Assembly: GCA_045863195.1 (NCBI GenBank) | Contig: BTUI01000009.1 | Location: 51,951-115,950, forward strand | DNA: 64,000 nt | Source of the DNA: Chloroflexota bacterium | GTDB taxonomy: Bacteria > Chloroflexota > Dehalococcoidia > UBA2979 | Direction: 5' to 3' | Shown here: one piece after another, positions 49,999-61,795 of the stretch | How the letters are laid out: each line of letters starts with the position of its first letter | Position numbering within the stretch: the first letter of the stretch is position 1 | The notes under the pieces: generated by a model | The model's database searches: none | Told to the model about the DNA's origin: nothing | Seen by the model: the letters and a program-made list of their open reading frames with translations, nothing else | Made by a program: the position numbers and the translations under genes

Positions 49999-50064
49999 GG
50001 GGAGCCTCCACGTTCCAGCCTATCGCCGGTGCGACCAGGGGCGAGCGCGGAGTAGGGTGCACTC

Positions 50065-51129
50065 ATGCGCTACCTCCACCTCGCCCGTGTCCCGGCCCTG
50101 GCGCTCGCCCTGCTCCTCGTCGCGTGCGAGGCGGAGCCGTCGCGCGGCACCGCAGCGGACGCCGAGCCCTCACCGACGGTCACGCCCGCGCCCGACGGGC
50201 CAGACGGCCCCGCGTACGGCATCGCCGGGCTGGTCCCGCCGCACCACCCCGCGCCGCAGGAGGCGGACTACCTCGCCTTCTTCGAGGCGCTGGAAGGCCT
50301 CGGCGGGTGGGTCGGGACCTACGTCGCGTGGACGCCGGAGGAGGGCGTGCCGGAGGCCGTCCGCACGCAGCCGGAGGTGGGCCGGCGGTACGGCTACCGC
50401 ACGCTCCCGATCGTCGGGTTCCACCGCGATGTCGCCGGTGGCGTGGCGCTCACCGTGGACTTCGCCGACCCCGCGCAGGTGGACGCTTACACCGACGCGC
50501 TGGTCGACCTCGTGCAGACGCTCCAGCCGCCGTTCCTCGGCGTGGGGAACGAGGTCAACCGCATCTGGGAGGACGACCCCGCCGGGTACGAGGCGTGGGT
50601 GCGGGCGCTGCCCGGGATCACGGACGCGGTCCGTGCCGCCTCGCCGGACACGCGCGTCTTCGTGACGTTCCAGTACGAGTTCCTGCGCGGCGCGGGGGCG
50701 ATCTCCGGCGAGGCACGGGAGCCCCAGTGGGCGCTGCTCGATGGTGTCCGCGATGCGCTCGACCTGATCGCGTTCACGACTTACCCGTACTTCGACTTCG
50801 GGACACCCGATGCGATCCCGGCGGACTACTACGCGGAGGCCGCGGCCCGCGCGGGGACCCCCGTCGCCTTCACCGAGGTGGGGTGGCCCTCCGCGCCGCT
50901 GGCGGTCGCGACCGCCTCTCCGCTCGGCGGGACACCGGAGGAGCAGGCGGCGTTCATCGAGCGGCTGTCGTTGCTCCTCGACGGGGTCGAGCCGGCGTTC
51001 GTGATGTGGGTGTGGGCGTACGACTCGCCCGCGACGGGCCCGCTGTTCGAGTCGCTCGGCCTCTCGACGAACGATGGCACCCCGAAGCCCGCGCTGGACG
51101 CGTGGCGACGGTTCCTCGGCGTGCGGTGA
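50065..51129 (+). CDS. lipoprotein with clan GH-A (GH5-like) glycoside-hydrolase TIM barrel
   Basis: Lipobox LLLVAC. ..LGVGNEVN.. (acid/base Glu) and ..FTEVGWPS.. (nucleophile Glu) spacing. Confidence 0.5.
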   Translation: MRYLHLARVPALALALLLVACEAEPSRGTAADAEPSPTVTPAPDGPDGPAYGIAGLVPPHHPAPQEADYLAFFEALEGLGGWVGTYVAWTPEEGVPEAVRTQPEVGRRYGYRTLPIVGFHRDVAGGVALTVDFADPAQVDAYTDALVDLVQTLQPPFLGVGNEVNRIWEDDPAGYEAWVRALPGITDAVRAASPDTRVFVTFQYEFLRGAGAISGEAREPQWALLDGVRDALDLIAFTTYPYFDFGTPDAIPADYYAEAAARAGTPVAFTEVGWPSAPLAVATASPLGGTPEEQAAFIERLSLLLDGVEPAFVMWVWAYDSPATGPLFESLGLSTNDGTPKPALDAWRRFLGVR

Positions 51130-51142
51130 GGGGCTGGGCCGC

Positions 51143-52111
51143 CTAGCGGCCGCCGGCGGCGTTCTCGATGAACGCCGCGACCTTCTGCAGAATGCCGTCC
51201 AGCCCGCCGCTCTGCGTGAGCGCAGGGCCGACCGGCGGCTCGGACCACTCGCGCCCGGCCTGGTCGCGCTTGAGGGGCGTCTCGTAGCCGTCCGTGATGC
51301 CGTAGGCGCGCGCGTACATGCGCGCCCGCACCACGTGGGCGGTGACGCTCCGCGGGTCGGGCAGGTGGTTCACATCGAACTGGTGGCCGGCCACGGCGTC
51401 CGCGAGATCGGACGGGAAGTTCCAGTGCAGCGCCAGCGCGCCGCCCAGTTCCGCGTCCGTGAAGCCGAGGACGGCCCGCTGCGCTTCCGCGATCGGGAGG
51501 CCGCGCTGCTGCGCGAGGATGCGAGAGGCGGCGAGTTCGCGCGGCCGCTGCTGGTCGAGCGCGAGCCGGCCGATGTTGTGGATGATGCCGGCGGTGAACG
51601 CCTCGTCCTGGTGCAACTTCGTCGCGCGCGCCATCACCTCCGCGAGCAGGCCGACCGTCACCGAGAAGCGCCACGCTTCCACCGGGTCCAGCACCTCGCC
51701 GCCCGGCAGCGTGTCGATGACGCACGAGGCGAGCGTGGCGGAACGCACGGCCCGGAAGCCGAGCAGCACCACGGCATCGCGGACGGTGGTGATGCGCCGC
51801 GGGAACCCGTAGTAGGCGCTGTTGGAGAGCCGGAGCACCTTCGCGGTCAGCGCCTGGTCGGTGGCGATGGCCTGCGCGAGTTCATGCGCTGAGAACCGCT
51901 CGCCCTCGGCGATTTCGAGGACGCGCACGGCGACCATCGGGAGGGGGCGCAGTTCCGCCACCTCCGCGATCACCAGGTCCAGGGCCGGGTTCGGCTCCAC
52001 CGGTCGCGCTCCACTCGCCCCTCGAACGACGGCATATGTCTTGTGTTCATCATCGGCGGGGCGGGCGAGTCCACGATGGGGGGAACCCTGACAGTTCCCG
52101 CACAAGTTCAC
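51143..52111 (-). CDS. HDOD-domain signalling protein
   Basis: ..LLAEVMARATKL..AGIIHNIGRLAL.. HDOD signature; start uncertain. Confidence 0.65.
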   Translation of the reverse strand: MNLCGNCQGSPHRGLARPADDEHKTYAVVRGASGARPVEPNPALDLVIAEVAELRPLPMVAVRVLEIAEGERFSAHELAQAIATDQALTAKVLRLSNSAYYGFPRRITTVRDAVVLLGFRAVRSATLASCVIDTLPGGEVLDPVEAWRFSVTVGLLAEVMARATKLHQDEAFTAGIIHNIGRLALDQQRPRELAASRILAQQRGLPIAEAQRAVLGFTDAELGGALALHWNFPSDLADAVAGHQFDVNHLPDPRSVTAHVVRARMYARAYGITDGYETPLKRDQAGREWSEPPVGPALTQSGGLDGILQKVAAFIENAAGGR

Positions 52112-52189
52112 GTGCCGGAAATCGAGGCGTCACCGCGCCGTCATTCGCGTCCGTCAGGATGCAAATGAAGGGAGCGGACGATGACTCGA

Positions 52190-52320
52190 ATCCTCATGCG
52201 CCGGTGTGACGACTGCGACACGGCCCCGGAGTCGGTGCGCCACGCGCCCGAGGCGACCCGCTGCTCGCACGGCCGCCGGCTCCGCGTGACGGTGCGGCTG
52301 GAGCGCCCTCGCACCCGGTA
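52190..52320 (+). CDS. possible 43-aa Cys-containing mini-protein (MTRILMRRCDDCDTAPESVRHAPEATRCSHGRRLRVTVRLERPRTR)
   Basis: GGGAG lies 7 nt upstream of the ATG. Not in the ORF track (under 60 aa). Weak. Confidence 0.25.
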
Positions 52321-52414
52321 GCGCCCCGTGGTGGCGCGCCGGTCGCGCAGGCCGCATGATCGGCGCCTCCGGTGACCGGTCGGGGCGGCGCGACCGCCCG
52401 AGGGCGGGTGACGC

Positions 52415-52726
52415 GTGGCGTGGGAAGACCTGGTGCTCGCCGCGGGCGGGTTCATCATCTCGTTCGGGATCATCCCGACCATCCGCGGCCCGGTGAAGCC
52501 ACCGCTGATCACCACGCTCACGTTCGTGGGCGTGCTCACCGCCTCGTTCGTCGCGTTCGTGTCGCTCGGGCTGTGGCTGACGGCGGTGGGGATCGGCGCG
52601 CAGGCGATCCTCTGGGCGGTGATCATGGCGCAGACGCTCATGATCCGCCGCAACGCGCAGGCGCTCACCCACCCGACCGTGGCGACGCCGGACCTGGGGT
52701 TCGAGGAGTACCGGCCCGCCGACTAA
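52415..52726 (+). CDS. small 3-TM membrane protein
   Basis: GTG start with GAGGGCGGG upstream; hydrophobic. Confidence 0.4.
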   Translation: MAWEDLVLAAGGFIISFGIIPTIRGPVKPPLITTLTFVGVLTASFVAFVSLGLWLTAVGIGAQAILWAVIMAQTLMIRRNAQALTHPTVATPDLGFEEYRPAD

Positions 52727-52746
52727 CGGAGGCAGGCGGGGCCGTC

Positions 52747-52836
52747 TGGCGGAGGGGGTGGGATTCGAACCCACGGGCCCCTCGCGGGGCCGGTCGTTTT
52801 CAAGACGACTGCGTTCAACCGCTCCGCCACCCCTCC
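52747..52836 (-). tRNA. tRNA-Ser (anticodon UGA), long variable arm, CCA encoded
   Basis: Manual fold: acceptor GGAGGGG; anticodon stem GUCGU/ACGAC with loop CUUGAAA; variable-arm stem GGCCCC/GGGGCC; T-arm GUGGGUUCGAAUCCCAC. Confidence 0.8.
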
Positions 52837-52905
52837 GAGCGCCGGTGGCTCCAGCCTACGCCACGCCCTCGCCGTTCCGCACGGCCCGTGTCGCGTCGTG
52901 CCGCC

Positions 52906-54003
52906 CTAGCCCTGGCCGGTGCCGGCGGGCCTCCGCCGGATGTCGACGTAGGCCCACAGCGCGAGCGCGATCGCGAGCACCGCGAAGGTCGCGCGGATCG
53001 CGTCCGCGGCGCGCTCGCCCGCGCCCTCGGATGCGGTGGCGTCCACGTACAGGTAGAGGACATAGGCGGCGTAGAGGGCGATGAACAGCACGCCATTGAG
53101 GCGGGTGATGATGGAGCCCGTCATGAACACCGGCAGGCAGATCACCGCCACGCCGATCATCACGATGATGTCGACGTTGATCGCCGTCGCGGACACGGGG
53201 ATGCCGCCCTCCACCACCAGGCTGCTGGCGCCGACCACGGCGAGGATGTTGAAGATGTTGCTCCCAACGACGTTGCCGACGGCGATGTCGCGCTCGCCCC
53301 GGATGCTCGCGACGACCGAGGTCGCCAGTTCGGGCATCGACGTGCCTGCGGCCACCACCGTGAGCCCGATCACCAGTTCGCTCACGCCCAGCGCCTCAGC
53401 CGCTTCCGTCGCGCCGTCCACGAACCATCGTGAGCCGAGGATGAGCAGCCCGAGGCCGGCCGCGACACGGACCGCGTCGTAGGCGAGTTGCGAGGCCGAC
53501 CGGCGCTCCGCGCCGAACGCCTCGCCGTACTCGGCGGCGATCGCCTTCCCCTCGCGGCGGCTGGAGACGATCGCCCAGCCGGTGTAGGCGACGATGCCCG
53601 CGAACAGCAGCGCCCCCTCCAGCCGGCTCACCACCCCGCCGATCGACACCAGCAGGAGCGCCGCGGAGGCCGCGATCATGAGCGGCACGTCCAGGCGGAT
53701 GAGCTGGCTCGTCACCACCAGCGGCGCGACCACCGCCGAGACACCGAGGATGAACAGCACGTTGAAGATGTTGCTGCCCACCACGTTGCCGATCGCGACG
53801 TCCGCGCTTCCATCGAGCGCGGACGAGACGCTAACGGCGAACTCCGGTGCACTGGTGCCGAACGCGACGATCGTGAGCCCGACGACCAGCGGCGAGATGC
53901 CGAGCGTGGTAGCGATGCGGGACGCTCCCCGGACCAGCGCCTCCGCCCCCACCACCAGCAGCACCAGGCCGGCGACGAACAGAACCACCGTGAGCGGATC
54001 CAT
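52906..54003 (-). CDS. Ca2+/Na+ antiporter (CaCA family, YrbG-like)
   Basis: Two alpha-repeats GTSAPEF.. and GTSMPEL..; 365 aa. Confidence 0.9.
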   Translation of the reverse strand: MDPLTVVLFVAGLVLLVVGAEALVRGASRIATTLGISPLVVGLTIVAFGTSAPEFAVSVSSALDGSADVAIGNVVGSNIFNVLFILGVSAVVAPLVVTSQLIRLDVPLMIAASAALLLVSIGGVVSRLEGALLFAGIVAYTGWAIVSSRREGKAIAAEYGEAFGAERRSASQLAYDAVRVAAGLGLLILGSRWFVDGATEAAEALGVSELVIGLTVVAAGTSMPELATSVVASIRGERDIAVGNVVGSNIFNILAVVGASSLVVEGGIPVSATAINVDIIVMIGVAVICLPVFMTGSIITRLNGVLFIALYAAYVLYLYVDATASEGAGERAADAIRATFAVLAIALALWAYVDIRRRPAGTGQG

Positions 54004-54095
54004 GGGGGCGTGCGGCTTTCTCTAGAGGTGAGCAGACACGCCTATTCTCCGCCCGCGTGGAACTCCGCGCACTCGGCCTCCGGTTGCCGGGCGTG

Positions 54096-54136
54096 CTCGT
54101 GGCCCGGAGGGCGCTCAGCGCTCTCTGGGCCACGAG
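54096..54136 (-). terminator. 10-bp stem (CTCGTGGCCC/GGGCCACGAG) enclosing a second inner palindrome, 5 nt downstream of the copB stop
   Basis: Nested dyad symmetry read directly from the sequence. Confidence 0.35.
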
Positions 54137-54140
54137 CGCC

Positions 54141-56387
54141 TTACCGATCCGTGCCCGGCCGCAGGTCGAGCCGGCGGAGCAACTGGGCGTTCACGGCCAC
54201 GATGATCGTCGAAAGGCTCATGAACACCGCGCCGAGCGCCGGAGGCATGACGACCCCGGCCCAGGCCAGCGCGCCGGCCGCGAGCGGGATCGCCACCACG
54301 TTGTAGCCCGTCGCCCACGCCAGGTTCTGCACCATCTTGCGGTAGGAGGCCGCGGACAGCCGGATCACACCTACGACGGATCGCGGGTCGTCCGAGGCAA
54401 GCACGACACCCGCCGACTCGATCGCGACGTCCGTGCCCGCGCCGATCGCTAGGCCCACGTCCGCCTGTGCGAGCGCCGGCGCATCGTTGACGCCATCACC
54501 GACCATCGCCACTCGCAGACCGCGCCGCTGGAGGGCGACGACCTGCTCCGCCTTGTGCTCAGGGAGGACCTCCGCGAACACCTCGTCGATGCCGAGGTCG
54601 GCCGCGACCGCCTCCGCCACGCTGCGCGCGTCGCCGGTCACCATCGCGACCTTCACACCGAGCGCGTGGAGCGCCTCGACGGCCTCGCGCGACTTGGGGC
54701 GGACCTCGTCCTCCAGGGCGAGCGATCCGGCCACGCTGCCGTCACGCAGCAGGTAGAGCACGGTGGCACCACGGCGCTGCCACTGTGTAATCGCCGAGGC
54801 GGCACCGGCCGGGATCTCGATCGCCCGTTCGCGGAGCCGTCTCGGCCCCACGACCTCGACGTTTGCGCCCTCGACGATGCCGCGGACGCCCCGACCGGGG
54901 TCGGCGGCGAACGCCGACACCGGCGGGAGCGTGCCCGCGGCCCGGGCGCGCTCCACGATGGCGCGGGCGAGGGGGTGCTCCGATTCCGCCTCCACCGCTC
55001 CGGCGAGGCGGAGCATCCCCGCCTCGTCGCTGTCGGCTGCCCAGACCCCGGTCACCCGCGGACGGCCGAGGGTTAGTGTGCCGGTCTTGTCGAACAGCAC
55101 GATGTCCAGGCGCCGCGTCCGCTCCAGCGCCAGGCGGTCCTTCACCAGGATGCCGTTTCGCGCCGACACTTCCGTCGAGATCGCGATCACGAGCGGGATT
55201 GCAAGCCCCAGCGCATGAGGGCAGGCGATCACAAGCACCGTGACCGTGCGCGCGATCGCTTCGTCGACGTTGCCGAGGAGTGACCACGCGACGAACGTCA
55301 CGAGGCCAGCCCCAATGGCGACGTAGAAGAGCACCGCGGCCGCCCGGTCGGCGATCGCCTGCGCGCGCGAGCGTGACTGCTGCGCCTGCGCGACCAGGCG
55401 TTGGATGCCGGCGAGAGCCGTGTCGTCGCCGACCGCATCCACACGGACACGGACGGCCGAGCCGAGCGCGACCATGCCGGCAGCGACTCGGTCGCCCTGC
55501 TGGCGGAGTATCGGACGGGACTCGCCCGTGAGCATGGACTCATCGAAGTCGGCCTGTCCCGCCTCGACCGTCCCGTCCGCCGGCACCCGGCCGCCCGGCC
55601 GCACGAGCACCACGTCGCCGGCCTGCAGGTCCGCCAGCGACACGAGGCGCGTGGTGTCGCCCTCAATGCGCTCCGCCTCGTCGGGCAACAGTTCGGCGAG
55701 TGCCGCCAGCGCCCCCCGGGTCAGCCCCAGGGCGCGCATCTCCTGCCAGTGGCCGAGGAGCATCACGGTCACCAACGCCGCGAGTTCCCACCAGAAGTCG
55801 AGGTCAACCCAGCCAAACTCGTGCGCGACCGATGAGACAAACGCGACCGCGATCGCCAGCGAGATGAGCAACATCATCCCGGGCTGACGCAGCCTGACCT
55901 CGTCCCACCCGCCACGGAGGAACACCCGTCCGCCGTACAAGAACACCGCGGAGCCGAGGGCAGGTGAGACCAGTGCGTGTCCGGGCACCCGGGCGAGTGA
56001 GTATCCGAGCCAGTGCTGCACCATCTCGCTGAACGCAATGGCCGGAACCGTCAGGATCAGTGAGAGCCAGAACAGGCGTCGGAACGCCTCCGGGTCATGC
56101 CCGGCGTGCTTGTCATGCCCGCTGTGCGCGCCGTGACCGGCATGCTCCGGCTCCTGGTGGTGTTCACCGTGACTGCTGTGTGCCCCGTGAACCGGTGCCG
56201 GGTGGTGGCCGCCGTGCTCGCCGTGGCTCGCGTGCTCTGAGCTGCCAGCGGTGACGGCGGGCGCGTTCCCGGACCGTTCCGGCTCCACGTGGCAACCGCC
56301 CGATGCGGAGTGCCCATCGTGGTCGTGGGGCCCGTCACCGGTGCGGGGCGGAGCGGGATGCTTCGAGTGGTCGTGTGGCGCTGGCAT
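54141..56387 (-). CDS. copB: P1B-type heavy-metal ATPase, CopB-like (His-rich N-terminus, CPH motif)
   Basis: N-terminal H-rich metal-binding region (no CxxC HMA); TM6 IACPHALGLA; DKTGTLT; GDGVNDAPAL. Confidence 0.9.
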   Translation of the reverse strand: MPAPHDHSKHPAPPRTGDGPHDHDGHSASGGCHVEPERSGNAPAVTAGSSEHASHGEHGGHHPAPVHGAHSSHGEHHQEPEHAGHGAHSGHDKHAGHDPEAFRRLFWLSLILTVPAIAFSEMVQHWLGYSLARVPGHALVSPALGSAVFLYGGRVFLRGGWDEVRLRQPGMMLLISLAIAVAFVSSVAHEFGWVDLDFWWELAALVTVMLLGHWQEMRALGLTRGALAALAELLPDEAERIEGDTTRLVSLADLQAGDVVLVRPGGRVPADGTVEAGQADFDESMLTGESRPILRQQGDRVAAGMVALGSAVRVRVDAVGDDTALAGIQRLVAQAQQSRSRAQAIADRAAAVLFYVAIGAGLVTFVAWSLLGNVDEAIARTVTVLVIACPHALGLAIPLVIAISTEVSARNGILVKDRLALERTRRLDIVLFDKTGTLTLGRPRVTGVWAADSDEAGMLRLAGAVEAESEHPLARAIVERARAAGTLPPVSAFAADPGRGVRGIVEGANVEVVGPRRLRERAIEIPAGAASAITQWQRRGATVLYLLRDGSVAGSLALEDEVRPKSREAVEALHALGVKVAMVTGDARSVAEAVAADLGIDEVFAEVLPEHKAEQVVALQRRGLRVAMVGDGVNDAPALAQADVGLAIGAGTDVAIESAGVVLASDDPRSVVGVIRLSAASYRKMVQNLAWATGYNVVAIPLAAGALAWAGVVMPPALGAVFMSLSTIIVAVNAQLLRRLDLRPGTDR

Positions 56388-56444
56388 GCGTCGGCTCCTT
56401 TCGAGGACCTGTGTGCCTCTGTAGACGCAGCCGCCCCTACGGGA

Positions 56445-57011
56445 TTACACCGCCGGCGCCGTCTTGCAGGTGCAGTCGAGACAACCGTGGTCGGCGCAGA
56501 TGCGGCAGGTCGCCTCGAGCGACTCGCGCAGGGCGCGGCGAGCGCGGTGCCGCCGGACGTTCAGGTTGTTGACCGTCAGTCCCAACTCCCCGGCCACCTC
56601 CTGAGGCGACCGCTCATCGAGGTCGACCGCGGAGAGGACGGCGGCGTATTCGGGTCGGAGCGCCGGGAGCAGGTCCCGAAAGCACTCGCAGAGGGTGCGC
56701 TCGTCCGCTTCGGAGAGATCGGGGACGTCGTGGTTCTCCCCGAGACGCTCGGTTCGCCGCGCGTGGACGTCCTGCCGTCGGTACGTATCCACGATCGCAT
56801 TCCGGAGCACCCGGTAGAACCACGCCGCGAGCCGCTCCCCGTCCTCAATGTCTGGTGCAGATCGCAGGGCGCGCAGGAGCGCGTCCTGGAGGATGTCCTC
56901 GGCGAGGTCGGGATCCGCAATGCGGCGTCGGACGAACGCGAGGTACTGGCCGCGCGCCGCGCTGAGGGCTTCGGCGACCGGGGAGTGGGTATTGTGGTCG
57001 TGGACGGTCAC
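56445..57011 (-). CDS. ECF sigma factor with C-terminal Cys-rich extension (CorE-like)
   Basis: Sigma2/sigma4 regions followed by TLCECF...TCRICADHGCLDCTCK. GTG start. Lies directly upstream of copB on the same strand. Confidence 0.7.
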   Translation of the reverse strand: MTVHDHNTHSPVAEALSAARGQYLAFVRRRIADPDLAEDILQDALLRALRSAPDIEDGERLAAWFYRVLRNAIVDTYRRQDVHARRTERLGENHDVPDLSEADERTLCECFRDLLPALRPEYAAVLSAVDLDERSPQEVAGELGLTVNNLNVRRHRARRALRESLEATCRICADHGCLDCTCKTAPAV

Positions 57012-57052
57012 CGGTCGACCTGATCCGCTTCCGTGGCTCGCCTGGCCTCGCG

Positions 57053-57487
57053 CTACTTCTCGCGGGCGGCGGCCTGCGCGGCGGCGAGCTGCTTGCGGAG
57101 GTCTCGGAGTTCGTTGAACGTCTCCGTCGCGTCGCGCAGCACGGCCACGGCGAGGAGGCCGTGCTCCGGGTGCTGCACCATCTGCAGGGTGAACTCCACG
57201 GAGACGCGCGAACCATCCTTGCGGAGCGCCGGCACCTTCAGCATCTCGCGACGGCCATACCGGGACGGCTGCCCGTCCACCATCACCCGGTCGTAGCCCT
57301 CCCAGTGCCGCGCTCGGAGGTTCTCCGGGATGATCAGGTCCAGGCTCTGGCCCAGTGCTTCCTCGGCCGTAAAGCCGAGGACCTCGTGCGCCGCCTCGTT
57401 CCAGTAGCGGATGATCCCGTCCGCGCCGGCCCAGACGGTCGCCTCGGGCGATCCGTCCATGATCGTGCGGTAGATGTCGTCGGACAT
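57053..57487 (-). CDS. stand-alone PAS domain protein
   Basis: ..AGADGIIRYWNEAAHEVLGFTAEEALGQSLDLIIP..; 144 aa. Confidence 0.75.
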   Translation of the reverse strand: MSDDIYRTIMDGSPEATVWAGADGIIRYWNEAAHEVLGFTAEEALGQSLDLIIPENLRARHWEGYDRVMVDGQPSRYGRREMLKVPALRKDGSRVSVEFTLQMVQHPEHGLLAVAVLRDATETFNELRDLRKQLAAAQAAAREK

Positions 57488-57547
57488 GGCGCGCTCCCTC
57501 CGTGCCCGGCCAGCCTACGCCACGAGGCAACTCGCCTGGGCGAGGGG

Positions 57548-58213
57548 CTAGTGGGTGAACGCGCCGTAGTGGTAGGCGTTGCACACGCCACACAGGCCGT
57601 GGCTCGTGTTCGCCGGTGAGATGTGGACCCATCGAGGGACCCAGTCCCACCGCTCGACCTCGGATTCCCCGCGCTGGAACCGCACCCGCCGGCAGTGCGC
57701 GCACTGGATCACCTGTCCGTGCTCGTTCCGGTACGCCTCCTCCACCTGCGGTGGGACCTCCACCGCCGCGCCTGGCGGCGACTCGCAGGCCGCGAGCAGG
57801 GAGTTCACGACCAGGACGCCGCGTCCGTCCAGCAGGCCGTACACGGTCATGCGGAAGATGCGCGTGACGGTCGGACTGGAGCATTCGTACGTGTGCGACC
57901 AGGGCTGGCCGGACTCGCGGGCCCACTCCATGCCCTCCCGGTAGAAGCGGTCGAGGACGGGAGGGATCGCCCGCCAGAGGTTCGACTCGAGCGCGCCTTC
58001 CTCGCCAAGGTCGGGGTCGCCGTTCTCCCGAGCGAAGGTGCGCCACGCCTCGTTGACGTAGCCCAGGCGTCCATCCGACCAGGCGCCGTAGATCACGTTG
58101 GCGGAGCGGTCCAGGTCGTCCAGGTCGAACGCCGCGAGGAGCGGTGCGAACTCAGGGTCGAGGTGCATCGGGCCGCCTCCATGCCGCATGACACGCCCGT
58201 CCGGCGTCACCAT
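57548..58213 (-). CDS. PAS-like protein with C-terminal CxxC...CxxC zinc ribbon
   Basis: ..NVIYGAWSDGRLGYVNEAWRTF.. PAS-like block; CAHCRRV...CGVC. Confidence 0.45.
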   Translation of the reverse strand: MVTPDGRVMRHGGGPMHLDPEFAPLLAAFDLDDLDRSANVIYGAWSDGRLGYVNEAWRTFARENGDPDLGEEGALESNLWRAIPPVLDRFYREGMEWARESGQPWSHTYECSSPTVTRIFRMTVYGLLDGRGVLVVNSLLAACESPPGAAVEVPPQVEEAYRNEHGQVIQCAHCRRVRFQRGESEVERWDWVPRWVHISPANTSHGLCGVCNAYHYGAFTH

Positions 58214-58251
58214 AGCGGCCGGATGGGGAGGTGGCACATGATTCGAGGCGG

Positions 58252-59076
58252 TCACGCCTCGGGCGGGAGTCCCGGGCGGATGAGGCGGTCGTACAGGAGG
58301 CCGCCGGCGAGCCCGCCGATGAGCGGCCCCGCGAGGTAGACCCAGAAGCCGCCACGCGGGCCGGGGATCGCGATCTCGCCCCACCCCGCCGCGAGCGCGA
58401 CGAGCCTTGGCCCGAGGTCGCGCGCCGGATTCCACCCGGCCTGTGTCGCGGGCGCGAACAGGCTGATGAGTACGGCCACCGTGAAGCCGATGAAGAACGG
58501 GGCGAGCCACTTCGGCCGGACGCCGTTCCGGGGCTCGGTCAGGGCGAAGATCATGCACACCAGCACAGCCGTCCCGAACGCCTCGATGCCTGCGGCCATC
58601 AGCGGGGAGACCAGTGCTTCCGCCTCCGGCCCCGTGCCGAAGATCGCCGGGTTCGGGAAGTACTCGCCGAAGACCATCGCGGAGCGCTCGGAGCCGGGCG
58701 CGCCGCGCTCGATCCCCTCGGCGGCCTCGAACCGCTCGATGAACGGGTGGAAGGTGGCGAGGACGACCGCGCCCGCGAGCGCCGCGCCCGCGAGTTGCGC
58801 TCCCCAGTAGGGAAGGACGCGCGACCTCGGGAAGGTGTCCGGTCGCAGGACGGCGACAGCGAGCGTCACCGCCGGGTTCAGGTGCGCTCCGGACACGGCG
58901 GCGGTCGCGTAGATCGCGAGCGTGACGCCGAAGCCCCAGACCACGGCCACCTGCCAGAGGCCGACCTGGGCGCCGGTCACCACCGCGGCGGCGACTGACC
59001 CGGTGCCGAACAACACCAGCAGGAAGGTTCCGACGACCTCCGCGGTGCAGGCGCGTGCGAGCGAGGTCGAGGTCAC
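58252..59076 (-). CDS. MIP-family aquaglyceroporin (AqpS/GlpF-like)
   Basis: Two NPA boxes (HLNPAV, NPARD). The GTG start forms a GTGA overlap with the upstream arsC-like stop. Confidence 0.85.
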   Translation of the reverse strand: MTSTSLARACTAEVVGTFLLVLFGTGSVAAAVVTGAQVGLWQVAVVWGFGVTLAIYATAAVSGAHLNPAVTLAVAVLRPDTFPRSRVLPYWGAQLAGAALAGAVVLATFHPFIERFEAAEGIERGAPGSERSAMVFGEYFPNPAIFGTGPEAEALVSPLMAAGIEAFGTAVLVCMIFALTEPRNGVRPKWLAPFFIGFTVAVLISLFAPATQAGWNPARDLGPRLVALAAGWGEIAIPGPRGGFWVYLAGPLIGGLAGGLLYDRLIRPGLPPEA

Positions 59077-59714
59077 CGGCCCACCGGCTGGTGCGACTCG
59101 ACCGCGATCCCGAGTTCCGCGAGCAGCCACATGACGCGGTCGCGGATCTCGTCACGGATGCGGCGCACCACCTCGATCCCCTGTCCGGCCGGGTCGTCTA
59201 GTTCCCAGTCCAGGTAGCGCTTACCGGGGTAGATGGTGCACGCGTCGCCGCAGCCCATGGTGATCACCACGTCCGCCGCCTCCACGAGTTCGTCCGTGAG
59301 CGGCTTTGGGAACTCCTGGTCGAGCGAGAGCCCGAGCTCCGCCATCGCCTCGCGCACCACGGGGTTGATCTCCCACGCCGGCGCGGAGCCGGCGGAGCGG
59401 ACGTGCACCCGGTCGCCGCCAAGGGCCGCCGTCAGAACCGCCGCCATCTGCGACCGGCCCGCATTGTGGACGCAGACGAACAGGACTTCCGGGACGTCCT
59501 TCCGGATCGTGCCGCGGGCCTGTGCCAGCGCCGTCAGGCGCTCGCGCGCCGTGCGCCGCGCGAAGAGCGGCACGAACGCGTCGATGCGCGCTCGGGCGAA
59601 GTGCTCCGTCGCCTGCTCCATGTACCGCAGCACGGTCTCGCGGCTCACCTGGCCGGCGAACTCCGCCGCCAGCAGTTCCGCTTCGTGCCGCAGTCGCTCG
59701 TCACGGTCGTCCAT
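59073..59714 (-). CDS. arsC: LMW-PTP-family arsenate reductase (Trx-coupled ArsC type) with about 75-aa N-terminal helical extension
   Basis: P-loop CVHNAGRS; second/third Cys in TMGCGDAC; 213 aa. Confidence 0.7.
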   Translation of the reverse strand: MDDRDERLRHEAELLAAEFAGQVSRETVLRYMEQATEHFARARIDAFVPLFARRTARERLTALAQARGTIRKDVPEVLFVCVHNAGRSQMAAVLTAALGGDRVHVRSAGSAPAWEINPVVREAMAELGLSLDQEFPKPLTDELVEAADVVITMGCGDACTIYPGKRYLDWELDDPAGQGIEVVRRIRDEIRDRVMWLLAELGIAVESHQPVGR

Positions 59715-59715
59715 C

Positions 59716-60420
59716 TCACTCCCCCGCCTGCGGCACGCGGTGCCGCGTCCGTGGCCGCACGTGCTGGGCGAGCGTGCTGACACGCGCTTCCAGCCGGTGC
59801 AGCGCCGCTTCGAAGTCCTCCGGTCGCCCGCCCGCCGCCGGGTCAGGCACCGACCAGTGCAGGTCCGCCGGGGGCGCGCCGCGTTCCTCGTGCGCCTGGT
59901 CGCACACCGTGACCACGAGGTCACCGGGACGCGCGACCGCACCGAGTTCGGCCGGGGCGTGGTCGAGGTCCAGGCCGGCGCGCTCCGCCGTCGCGCGTGC
60001 CAGCGGATGCACCTCGGGCGCCGGGTGCGTGCCGGCGCTCGCGACGCCGACGGCGGCGCCGGAGCGACGCCAGAGCGCCTCCGCCAGCGGCGAGCGCGCC
60101 GAGTTCGCCGTGCAGACAAAGAGCACCCGGTCTGCCTCCAGCGGCGCGCCCCGCTCCGGCAGCATCGCGCGTCCCGCCTCGGTCAGCACGAGGTAGCGAC
60201 GGCGATGGTCGCCCGCGGAGACGCGGCGCTCGATGAGCCCGGCCGCCTCCAGGGTGCGGAGGTGGTGGGCGAGCAGGTTGGACGGCACCGCCAACGCCGC
60301 TTCCACCTCGGACGGGGCGAGGTCGGTGAGCGCGAGCGCCTCGACGATCGCCAGCCGGAGCGGTTCGCCGAGGGCGGCGTGCGCGGCCGCGCGGGCCGTG
60401 AGGGCGGCGGTGAACTCCAT
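59716..60420 (-). CDS. arsR: ArsR-family HTH regulator fused to an LMW-PTP/ArsC-like domain
   Basis: N-terminus LRLAIVEAL..LLAHHLRTLEAAGLIERR (ArsR wHTH); C-terminus VLFVCTANSARS (CX5R P-loop) and VTVCDQAHEE. Confidence 0.75.
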   Translation of the reverse strand: MEFTAALTARAAAHAALGEPLRLAIVEALALTDLAPSEVEAALAVPSNLLAHHLRTLEAAGLIERRVSAGDHRRRYLVLTEAGRAMLPERGAPLEADRVLFVCTANSARSPLAEALWRRSGAAVGVASAGTHPAPEVHPLARATAERAGLDLDHAPAELGAVARPGDLVVTVCDQAHEERGAPPADLHWSVPDPAAGGRPEDFEAALHRLEARVSTLAQHVRPRTRHRVPQAGE

Positions 60421-60434
60421 GCGGCGAGGCTAGT

Positions 60435-60448
60435 ATCTCGCAAGAGAT
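60435..60448. promoter_or_regulatory. dyad ATCTC-GCAA-GAGAT in the AT-rich arsR / ferredoxin divergent region (candidate ArsR operator)
   Basis: Seen in the sequence, 15 nt upstream of the arsR start. Confidence 0.3.
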
Positions 60449-60598
60449 TGAGTCAAGATGTATCGAGTGATAGCACGCCAGCCGAGGGGCGCACGCCCCC
60501 GCTGCCGAGGGGCATTAGACCTCGGGCGGGAGTCTCGGTAGGATTCTGCCGGACTCTGCCCCGACGGCGCGTGCCGTCCGCGCGGAAAGGCTCAGCGC

Positions 60599-61795
60599 GT
60601 GGCGTTCGTCATTACCGAGACCTGCATCGACACGCGGGACCAGGCGTGTGTGGACGTTTGCCCGGTGGATTGCATCCACTTCGAAGATGGCAAAGACCGC
60701 ATGCTCTACATCAACCCTGCGGAATGCATCGACTGCGGGGCGTGCCAGCCGGCCTGCCCCGTCAGCGCGATCTTCCCGGAGGGTGACGTCCCGGCGAACC
60801 TGAACCGGTTCATCGAGATCAACTCGCTCTGGTACGAGAACGCGGACGCCGCCCGCGCCAAGGTCGGCGGTGGCGGTGGTGCCGCCGCGCCGGCCGCTGC
60901 TCCGGCGGCCGCGCCCGCCGAGGGCGGTGAAGCGCCGGCCGAGGCCCCCGCTGCTGCGGAGGCCGCGCCCGTTGCCGCTGCCGCCGCGCCCGCGGCCCCG
61001 GCCGCGAAGGCCGCCCCGGTGGCGGCGGTACAGCAGGTGCCCGCGGTTCCGGTCGGAAGCCACGGCGGCGTCCAGGCCTCGAAGTACCGCCTCCCGAAGG
61101 CGACCGGTGTCGCCTCCCTCGCCGCGTTCGCGGCGGCGGTGTATGTGATGTTCGTCTTCCCCGGCCCAACCTGGATCGAACTGTCCTGGGCGGAGGGGTT
61201 GTTCAAGGCGATCGGCATCGACAACGGTGGCGGCGTGGGCATCACGGTGGCGCTGCTGCTGCCGCTGGCGCCGCTGCTGCTCCTCGTCCACCTCGCGATC
61301 CAGTTCGGCGACTTCAACAAGTTCGCCGCCTCGCACGAGCGCAACCTCGCCAAGTGGCGGGCGCGCGGCCCGCAGTGGCGGCGCAACGAGGAGTCCCGCC
61401 GCTACCTGCTCGCGGAGACGGTCGCCGCGATCGCCAAGGACCGCTTCGACTACACGCCCGAGGTCGGCGTGAAGACGTACGTGAACCTCCCGGAGCCCCA
61501 GATGGGCGTGGAGGTCCGCGGCACGGGCGACAAGGTCTTCCCGGACATCGTTACGCTGCGCCCCGGCAACCAGCCGGTCGCCATCGTGCAGGTGGAGACG
61601 AAGGAGACGGTCACGCGCGACCAGGCGGCGTACGTCTGGGCGATGCTGGAGAACCGCACCTGCCCGCTCTACATTTACGTCCCCGCCGGCATGCTCCGCC
61701 GCGCGAAGGACTACGCGAAGGCGGTCGGGCTGAAGAACGTGAAGTTCCGCACCTGGCGCTGGAGCCCCAACGGCATGGTCGTGAAGGAGGCGTAG
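60599..61795 (+). CDS. 7Fe (FdxA-type) ferredoxin domain fused via Ala/Pro-rich linker and a TM segment to a C-terminal PD-(D/E)xK-like domain
   Basis: N-terminus CIDTRDQACVDVCPVDCI...CIDCGACQPACP (3Fe-4S/4Fe-4S pattern); linker AAAPAAAPAAAPAEGG..; TM helices; C-terminus ..PDIVTLRPGNQPVAIVQVETKE.. (PD...ExK). Confidence 0.6.
   Translation: MAFVITETCIDTRDQACVDVCPVDCIHFEDGKDRMLYINPAECIDCGACQPACPVSAIFPEGDVPANLNRFIEINSLWYENADAARAKVGGGGGAAAPAAAPAAAPAEGGEAPAEAPAAAEAAPVAAAAAPAAPAAKAAPVAAVQQVPAVPVGSHGGVQASKYRLPKATGVASLAAFAAAVYVMFVFPGPTWIELSWAEGLFKAIGIDNGGGVGITVALLLPLAPLLLLVHLAIQFGDFNKFAASHERNLAKWRARGPQWRRNEESRRYLLAETVAAIAKDRFDYTPEVGVKTYVNLPEPQMGVEVRGTGDKVFPDIVTLRPGNQPVAIVQVETKETVTRDQAAYVWAMLENRTCPLYIYVPAGMLRRAKDYAKAVGLKNVKFRTWRWSPNGMVVKEA

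Follow-up and report, generated by a model that had tools for sequence, protein, structure and literature searches.

The 64,000-nucleotide stretch of Chloroflexota DNA analysed here (contig BTUI01000009.1; hereafter the window, with a G+C content of ~72%) carries on its minus strand a gene for an extracytoplasmic function (ECF) sigma factor with a cysteine-rich tail and, directly downstream, copB, a gene for a P-type ATPase of predicted P1B-3 type. The two genes probably make up a copper-detoxification cassette in which the sigma factor acts as its own sensor. The gene structures, motifs, conservation, linkage, and promoter-motif enrichment on which this reading draws were observed directly. 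An earlier reading of the same DNA, made from its letters and open reading frames (the original prediction), had placed the sigma gene directly upstream of the gene for an ATPase with a CPH motif. Both genes are indeed found in that order on the minus strand, separated by 57 nt. The features that carry the argument are as follows.

56445-57011, minus strand: ECF sigma gene, 188 aa, GTG start, with Pfam matches to Sigma70_r2 and Sigma70_r4_2
56682-56690, minus strand: CxC motif C108-E-C110 at the start of sigma4, between sigma2 and sigma4.2
56466-56507, minus strand: core of the cysteine-rich domain (CRD), C169-R-I-C172-A-D-H-G-C177-L-D-C180-T-C182, from the translation
56423-56449, minus strand: predicted sigma-dependent copB promoter, TGTAATC-N15-CGTCT, in the 57-nt spacer between the sigma gene and copB
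56395-56400, minus strand: Shine-Dalgarno sequence AAGGAG, 7 nt before the copB ATG at 56387 and conserved in close relatives
54141-56387, minus strand: copB, predicted P1B-3-type (CPH) P-type ATPase, 748 aa, matching NCBIfam ATPase-IB1_Cu and Pfam E1-E2_ATPase and Hydrolase
56073-56387, minus strand: His-rich N-terminal predicted metal-binding region of CopB, residues 1-105
55215-55223, minus strand: transmembrane CPH motif of CopB, residues 389-391 (VIACPHALGLA)
54095-54137, minus strand: perfect nested hairpin 3 nt after the copB stop codon, with an 11-bp outer stem and inner 3-bp and 4-bp stems

The sigma factor and its cysteines

Translation of 56445-57011 yields a protein of 188 amino acids that includes TLCECF, contains the C-terminal stretch quoted in the original prediction (TCRICADHGCLDCTCK), and ends in ATCRICADHGCLDCTCKTAPAV. 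It is identical to a protein from a Chloroflexota metagenome-assembled genome in NCBI, where its only label is "hypothetical protein," and many homologues of 180-190 aa support both its start and its length. Pfam detects Sigma70_r2 (PF04542) at residues 22-81, Sigma70_r4_2 (PF08281) at residues 109-161, and nothing else, and a Cys-rich extension of 27 residues (162-188) follows sigma4.2. The protein contains exactly seven cysteines, arranged as C108-x-C110 and C169-x2-C172-x4-C177-x2-C180-x-C182.

Sigma factors of the CorE-like kind, ECF44, are recognised by a CxC motif that is strictly conserved and lies between sigma2 and sigma4.2, and by a CRD of 21-50 residues at the C-terminus, and are usually found in a metal-related gene neighbourhood (PMC3107203, PMC4937300, PMC6851896). 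ECF44 has been merged into ECF238, which has SigZ of Bacillus subtilis as a member (PMC7826278) and in which ~85% of members are without the CxC motif (PMC8999054). As a stand-in for an ECF44/ECF238 assignment, we used the SigZ profile, which is the best NCBIfam match of the sigma factor (TIGR02959; 106 bits, E 2e-30, below the SigZ equivalog cutoff of 169 bits), ahead of the next specific family at 63 bits and of SigH_actino, a model for sigma factors partnered by zinc-binding anti-sigma (ZAS) proteins, at 43 bits. Like the present protein, SigZ lacks an anti-sigma and ends in a short extension with cysteines, but of these C-terminal cysteines it has only two.

The founding member of ECF44, CorE (MXAN_3426 of Myxococcus xanthus), has cysteines at positions 120, 122, 181, 184, 189, 192, 194, and 206, with 181, 184, 192, and 194 forming the invariant four of the CRD (PMC3107203, PMC4937300). 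Measured against these published residue numbers, all seven cysteines of the Chloroflexota protein fall at the CorE position minus 12 (120, 122, 181, 184, 189, 192, and 194), so that the segment from the CxC to the fifth CRD cysteine must align without gaps. The sixth CRD cysteine of CorE, C206, has no equivalent here; mutating it changes little in CorE. For activity, CorE and CorE2 both require the CxC and the CRD, and their main activating residues are C189 and Cys178, respectively (PMC4937300); C177 corresponds to CorE C189. Both CorE and the present protein consist of sigma2 and sigma4.2 only, are without an anti-sigma, and have a copB P1B ATPase as target (predicted in our case), whereas their hosts belong to different phyla, Myxococcota and Chloroflexota. 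The likeness to the C-terminus of CorE that had been proposed for this protein therefore holds in the seven cysteine positions, the CxC motif, and a 27-residue CRD with identical spacing. Every defining feature of the group that can be tested on sequence is present, which supports classifying the protein as a CorE-like (ECF44/ECF238-type) sigma factor. To our knowledge, only two such factors have been studied so far, both from M. xanthus, and no structure of one exists.

To place the cysteines in a wider context, a scan of one genome per species gave 474 loci encoding related sigma factors, 80 of which were fetched; all counts of related loci refer to these 80. They span more than 10 phyla, with hosts in Chloroflexota, Nitrospirota (Manganitrophaceae), Bacteroidota, Ignavibacteria, Calditrichota, KSB1, Spirochaetota, Planctomycetota, Gemmatimonadota, Bradymonadales, and others. 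The CxC motif occurs in 80/80 loci and the exact C-x2-C-x4-C-x2-C-x-C spacing of the CRD in 78/80. An alignment of 32 homologues with 50-85% identity shows all seven cysteines to be invariant (32/32), and H175 and D179 to be invariant or nearly so. A P1B ATPase gene lies within 8 kb of the sigma gene at 43/80 loci; in most cases it follows the sigma gene directly and in the same orientation. The invariance of the cysteines, taken together with this recurring linkage, argues that the arrangement is more than chance.

An AlphaFold model built from the 32-sequence alignment has the usual sigma2 and sigma4 helical domains. The CxC motif sits in the first sigma4 helix (predicted helix 101-117), C169 and C172 lie at the end of the last sigma4 helix, and the final 11 residues are unstructured in this metal-free model. 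Comparison with the PDB found no solved structure that covers the Cys-rich tail. At the other end of the protein, residues 1-8 (56990-57011, minus strand) give an N-terminus V/M-T-V-H-D-H-N-T-H with an H-D-H stretch, which is kept as AHDH in the closest relatives (identity ~69% or more) and is not found in the wider family; it could be an extra metal-binding feature or could be meaningless.

CorE2 (ECF238s15), the Cd/Zn-responsive sigma factor of M. xanthus, has its CxC at 108/110 and its first CRD cysteine at 169, exactly as here, with a CRD of 28 rather than 27 residues and likewise no anti-sigma (PMC4937300). It differs in having one extra residue between the first two CRD cysteines, in regulating a CDF transporter and not a copper ATPase, and in carrying Cys174 where the present protein and CorE have Ala. 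Swapping CorE Ala185 and CorE2 Cys174 exchanges copper and cadmium responsiveness (PMC4937300), and Ala173 here is the counterpart of CorE Ala185. It might be argued that a module so similar to that of CorE2, in a family in which a single residue switches specificity, responds to Ag, Cd, or Zn, or that the pump exports another cation, given that even for P1B-3 pumps it has been debated whether Cu(II) or Cu(I) is transported (PMC5552934). However, the protein has Ala at the switch position, like CorE, and so do 73 of the 78 related sigmas with exact spacing, of which another 4 have Ser and 1 has Leu; both spacing variants have Ala as well, and Cys is found in 0/80. Further, the linked genes encode CopB/CopA-type ATPases, HMA, YHS, and cupredoxin proteins and not CDF or ZntA types, and the best NCBIfam match of the pump is the copper subfamily. 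We thus regard a different metal or cation as quite improbable.

The CopB pump, its predicted promoter and the predicted regulon

P1B-3 ATPases are characterised by a CPH motif, by GYN(x)4P and MSxST in the last two transmembrane helices, and by a His-rich N-terminus of 30-100 aa (PMC5552934). In the copB product, the CPH motif is at residues 389-391, the last two helices contain GYNVVAIP at 694 and MSLST at 723, and residues 1-105 include 23 His and 1 Cys, with no CxxC and no HMA domain by Pfam. The original prediction of a CopB-like pump with a poly-His N-terminus and CPH, in place of a CxxC HMA domain, is thus upheld. The catalytic motifs are in place (TGES at 287, DKTGT at 433, SEHP at 469, and GDGVND at 630), the best NCBIfam match is ATPase-IB1_Cu with 559 bits, and PDB matches include LpCopA (E 4e-123) and the ATP-binding domain of AfCopB (3skx; E 2e-75). 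Compared with the P1B-3/CopB ATPases of Archaeoglobus fulgidus and Enterococcus hirae (PMC5552934, PMC3475447), all signatures are common and no structural difference was noted. With all sequence signatures present, the ATPase is assigned to the P1B-3/CopB type, and its transport of copper is predicted from that class.

The regulators of known CopB genes are usually of the CopY, CsoR, or CueR type, and not sigma factors. Here, the 57-nt spacer holds a candidate ECF-type promoter, whose -35 element TGTAATC (56449-56443) shares nucleotides with the sigma stop codon TAA (56447-56445) and whose -10 element GCGTCT (56428-56423) lies 35 nt before the copB ATG. When the spacers of close relatives are aligned, the block TGTAATC-N13-TGCGTCT is conserved, and it is kept in locus L004 despite 35 nt inserted after the stop codon, so coding constraint is not the explanation. 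The pattern TGTAAYC-N12-15-CGTC has a single match in the window (56424-56449, minus strand; 0.05 expected), and allowing two mismatches revealed no additional credible site there. No canonical sigma70 promoter was found in 52800-58400.

The same pattern recurs in sense orientation beside the sigma gene at 50/80 related loci, against ~0.8 expected from its density elsewhere; it lies within 400 nt after the sigma stop at 40 loci and within 400 nt before the sigma start at 10. Several sites farther away (in L018, L024, L025, and L036) stand immediately upstream of a displaced ATPase gene. The consensus of 76 distinct sites, RSTGTAACC-N14/15-CGTCT, is typical of ECF architecture and fits the published CorE promoters, whose -35 element contains AAC, followed 16-18 nt downstream by a conserved G (PMC3107203), features shared by the present promoter. 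TGTAACC also serves as -35 element in Brucella, in the unrelated BcrS promoters, where it is combined with a different -10 element, and so the -35 element alone is not diagnostic. For 73 sites, we tallied the first gene downstream of the motif.

31/73 sites: P1B ATPases (20 of them CPH)
10/73 sites: DUF4396 membrane proteins
9/73 sites: the sigma gene itself
~7/73 sites: YHS proteins
~4/73 sites: HMA proteins
1/73 sites: thioredoxin (L048)
Remaining sites: miscellaneous genes

DUF4396 is the second most common predicted target (in L008, L011, L019, L030, L031, L034, L044, L063, L068, and L069), which suggests a copper-handling role for this family. The DUF4396 targets have a conserved HCLTGC motif and His-rich ends. 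In the Candidatus Manganitrophus loci L005 (8716-8800) and L006 (5423-5510), one of which is on a plasmid, two tandem promoter motifs 56 nt apart precede a CPH ATPase gene; the first open reading frame found after the motifs in L006 is only 367 aa long.

In the window, no such motif was found upstream of the sigma gene itself. The sigma gene is therefore probably read from upstream genes and not autoregulated, in agreement with reports that CorE and CorE2 are autoregulated in part or not at all; as for CorE, autoregulation would not be obligatory. The locus differs from that of CorE in that its target gene follows the sigma gene immediately, with a -35 element that extends over the sigma stop codon, and in having only one predicted target in 64 kb as opposed to a multi-gene regulon (cuoB, copA, copB, and MXAN_3427).

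The composition of the predicted regulon bears on the question of what the sigma factor senses. The seven cysteines could instead hold a structural Zn or an Fe-S cluster, making the protein a sensor of thiol oxidation or redox stress of which copper is one cause only. Sigma factors that carry a different on-board sensor, OrbS among them, can likewise have Cys-rich tails; a resemblance of the CxC and CRD to ZAS motifs has been noted (PMC6851896); a thioredoxin gene follows one motif site; and the gene for a probable heme-type PAS redox/gas sensor adjoins the sigma gene in the window. However, the predicted targets across phyla are overwhelmingly copper-handling and not thiol-repair genes, and the specificity-determining position matches CorE, for which tests of general oxidative stress led to the conclusion that copper itself, in a particular redox state, sets activity (PMC3107203). 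A redox sensor of this kind is, in our view, unlikely, and copper sensing by the sigma factor remains the preferred reading.

Among the sigma-linked P1B ATPases of related loci, the transmembrane motif is CPH in ~23, CPC in ~17, and CPD in 3. CPD pumps are encoded at L018 (12217-14418), L024 (11953-14379), and L058 (6676-8658) and represent the rare "P1B-3a" type (PMC5552934). Variant CRD spacing (CAQGNCIGDCTC, with C-x3-C replacing C-x2-C) occurs only in the sigmas of L014 and L024, which precede CPD-type pumps; this hints that sensor type and pump type co-vary.

The original prediction also had a nested-palindrome terminator following copB. The palindrome is there, perfect and unique in the window, and the copB 3' region folds with -71.7 kcal/mol (z = -2.7), but its role as a terminator is presumed: no T-run follows the hairpin, as it would in an intrinsic terminator, a consensus terminator scan makes no call at this position, and 52800-58400 contains no U-tract terminators, only two weak terminator-like matches inside genes. 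The hairpin is probably a U-tract-less terminator or a transcript-stabilising stem.

Neighbouring genes and the anti-sigma question

The sigma gene and copB are part of a longer row of minus-strand genes, listed here in the direction of transcription.

59716-60420, minus strand: fusion of an ArsR helix-turn-helix domain and an ArsC-like low-molecular-weight protein tyrosine phosphatase (LMW-PTP), first in the transcription direction
59073 to ~59714, minus strand: LMW-PTP-type ArsC with a Phosphatase-like_N domain
58252-59130, minus strand: MIP channel (aquaporin)
57548 to ~58190, minus strand: 206-213-aa protein without a Pfam or NCBIfam match
57053-57487, minus strand: stand-alone PAS protein, 144 aa, matching Pfam PAS and NCBIfam sensory_box
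56445-57011 and 54141-56387, minus strand: sigma gene and copB, as above
52906-54003, minus strand: Ca/Na antiporter
52747-52836, minus strand: tRNA-Ser, the only hit of an RNA family scan of 50000-61000

The three genes at 58252-60420 (minus strand), which encode the ArsR-LMW-PTP fusion, the second LMW-PTP, and the MIP-family channel, form an arsenic-type cluster directly upstream; with copB and the Ca/Na antiporter they make a row of metal(loid)-handling genes that ends at the tRNA-Ser (52747-52836). The protein at 57548-58190 has a PAS-like "DGRLGYVNEAW" in its N-terminal half and a zinc ribbon-like CxxC...CxxC (CAHC...CGVC) at its C-terminus. On the plus strand, 60599-61795 encodes a 398-aa protein whose N-terminal ferredoxin domain (2x[4Fe-4S]) is joined by a long Ala/Pro-rich linker to a C-terminal part without a family match.

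The PAS gene precedes the sigma gene by 41 nt on the same strand, and no anti-sigma gene is found at the locus, both as the original prediction had it. Neither Pfam nor NCBIfam detects an anti-sigma domain in the flanking genes (PAS, CopB, Ca/Na antiporter, and the 206-aa protein), and the gaps of 41 and 57 nt on either side of the sigma gene are too short to hold an anti-sigma gene. A regular-expression scan of the six-frame translation for anti-sigma motifs was likewise negative, its sole H-x3-C-x2-C match lying in a non-coding extension of an HDOD open reading frame.

An alternative is that a partner controls the sigma factor, be it the neighbouring PAS protein or an anti-sigma encoded elsewhere; the Cys motifs would then serve folding only. 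The position of the PAS gene, which may be co-transcribed with the sigma gene, is compatible with this, as is the use of soluble partners by some ECF groups (PMC8999054). The CorE-like group, however, functions without an anti-sigma (PMC3107203, PMC4937300), none is encoded nearby, and the PAS protein has no homologue in the 80 related loci, including the 85%-identical relative L001. The last result led us to reject the idea that the PAS protein is a conserved partner or stands in for an anti-sigma, and control by any partner seems very improbable. Searches with tblastn also found no homologues of the 213-aa protein, the Ca/Na antiporter, or the aquaporin in these loci. Since none of the other window neighbours recurs, the conserved unit is the sigma factor with its target, and the PAS gene is probably a neighbour rather than part of the module. 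In close Chloroflexota relatives the company is different: upstream of the sigma gene lie genes for a cupredoxin and an HMA/Cys-rich protein, and a cytochrome c gene lies downstream of copB.

In a PDB alignment, His61 of the PAS protein (...NLRARHWEGY...) stands opposite the proximal heme His of FixL and EcDOS/DosP, and the protein is probably heme-binding in the manner of FixL/DosP; it is possibly a small O2/redox sensor without an output domain. A broader reading would make the cassette one instance of a one-protein copper switch found in many phyla, with a near-universal promoter (TGTAACC-N14/15-CGTCT) and DUF4396 and YHS proteins in its regulon, which is here also placed under a heme-PAS O2/redox sensor. 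Taken whole, this is doubtful. Its cross-phylum promoter and regulon are well supported, and the coupling of copper sensing to oxygen or redox through a heme-PAS protein, echoing the Cu(II)-on/Cu(I)-off behaviour of CorE, is speculative.

The proposed switch and its significance

Metal binding, copper specificity, and conformational activation of the sigma factor we infer from CorE and CorE2. On this basis, the 188-aa sigma would be made without a copper-specific promoter of its own, through transcription from the upstream genes, and would be inactive without metal. Copper would be bound by a thiolate site formed by C108/C110 at the start of sigma4 and the C169/C172/C177/C180/C182 tail, possibly with contributions from the conserved H175 and D179, and binding would bring sigma4, and with it the whole sigma factor, into a conformation competent for RNA polymerase. 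The holoenzyme would then recognise TGTAATC-N15-CGTCT in the 57-nt spacer and transcribe copB, the CPH/His-rich P1B-3 pump would export cytoplasmic copper, and the hairpin after copB would end or stabilise the transcript. The sigma factor would switch off once copper in the cytoplasm declines or, as has been proposed for CorE, undergoes reduction.

Several points weigh against this account. The CRD tail of the AlphaFold model (residues 178-188) is of low confidence, and no proximity of the CxC to the CRD can be read from the model. The comparison with CorE sets published residue numbers side by side and not aligned sequences. The CRD has five cysteines in 27 residues versus six in 38 in CorE, and being shorter by one cysteine, it may not share the redox on/off behaviour of CorE. 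The copB promoter is predicted from a consensus, and part of its -35 element doubles as the sigma stop codon; finally, read-through from the sigma gene could supply a copper-independent basal level of copB.

The locus is a clear new example of a known system and not a new kind of system: control of copper P1B ATPases by CorE-like sigma factors is established, and ECF238 is a catalogued group. What is new is a CorE-like member in the Chloroflexota, a phylum without a characterised one, and its tidy minimal layout, together with the predicted ECF-type promoter in the spacer between sigma gene and copB and the recurrence of this promoter across phyla. It may be that ECF Hub already lists the cross-phylum consensus, along with DUF4396 and YHS as recurring targets.

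Within 3 kb, the locus offers a minimal system of one sigma factor with a shorter, five-Cys tail, one defined promoter, and one target gene, which could serve biochemical and structural work, tests of the single-residue rule of metal specificity, and the construction of orthogonal copper biosensors. From the promoter consensus shared across phyla, DUF4396 and YHS proteins are predicted to be members of copper regulons, and for annotation, what is now a "hypothetical protein" could become a CorE-like copper-responsive ECF sigma factor.

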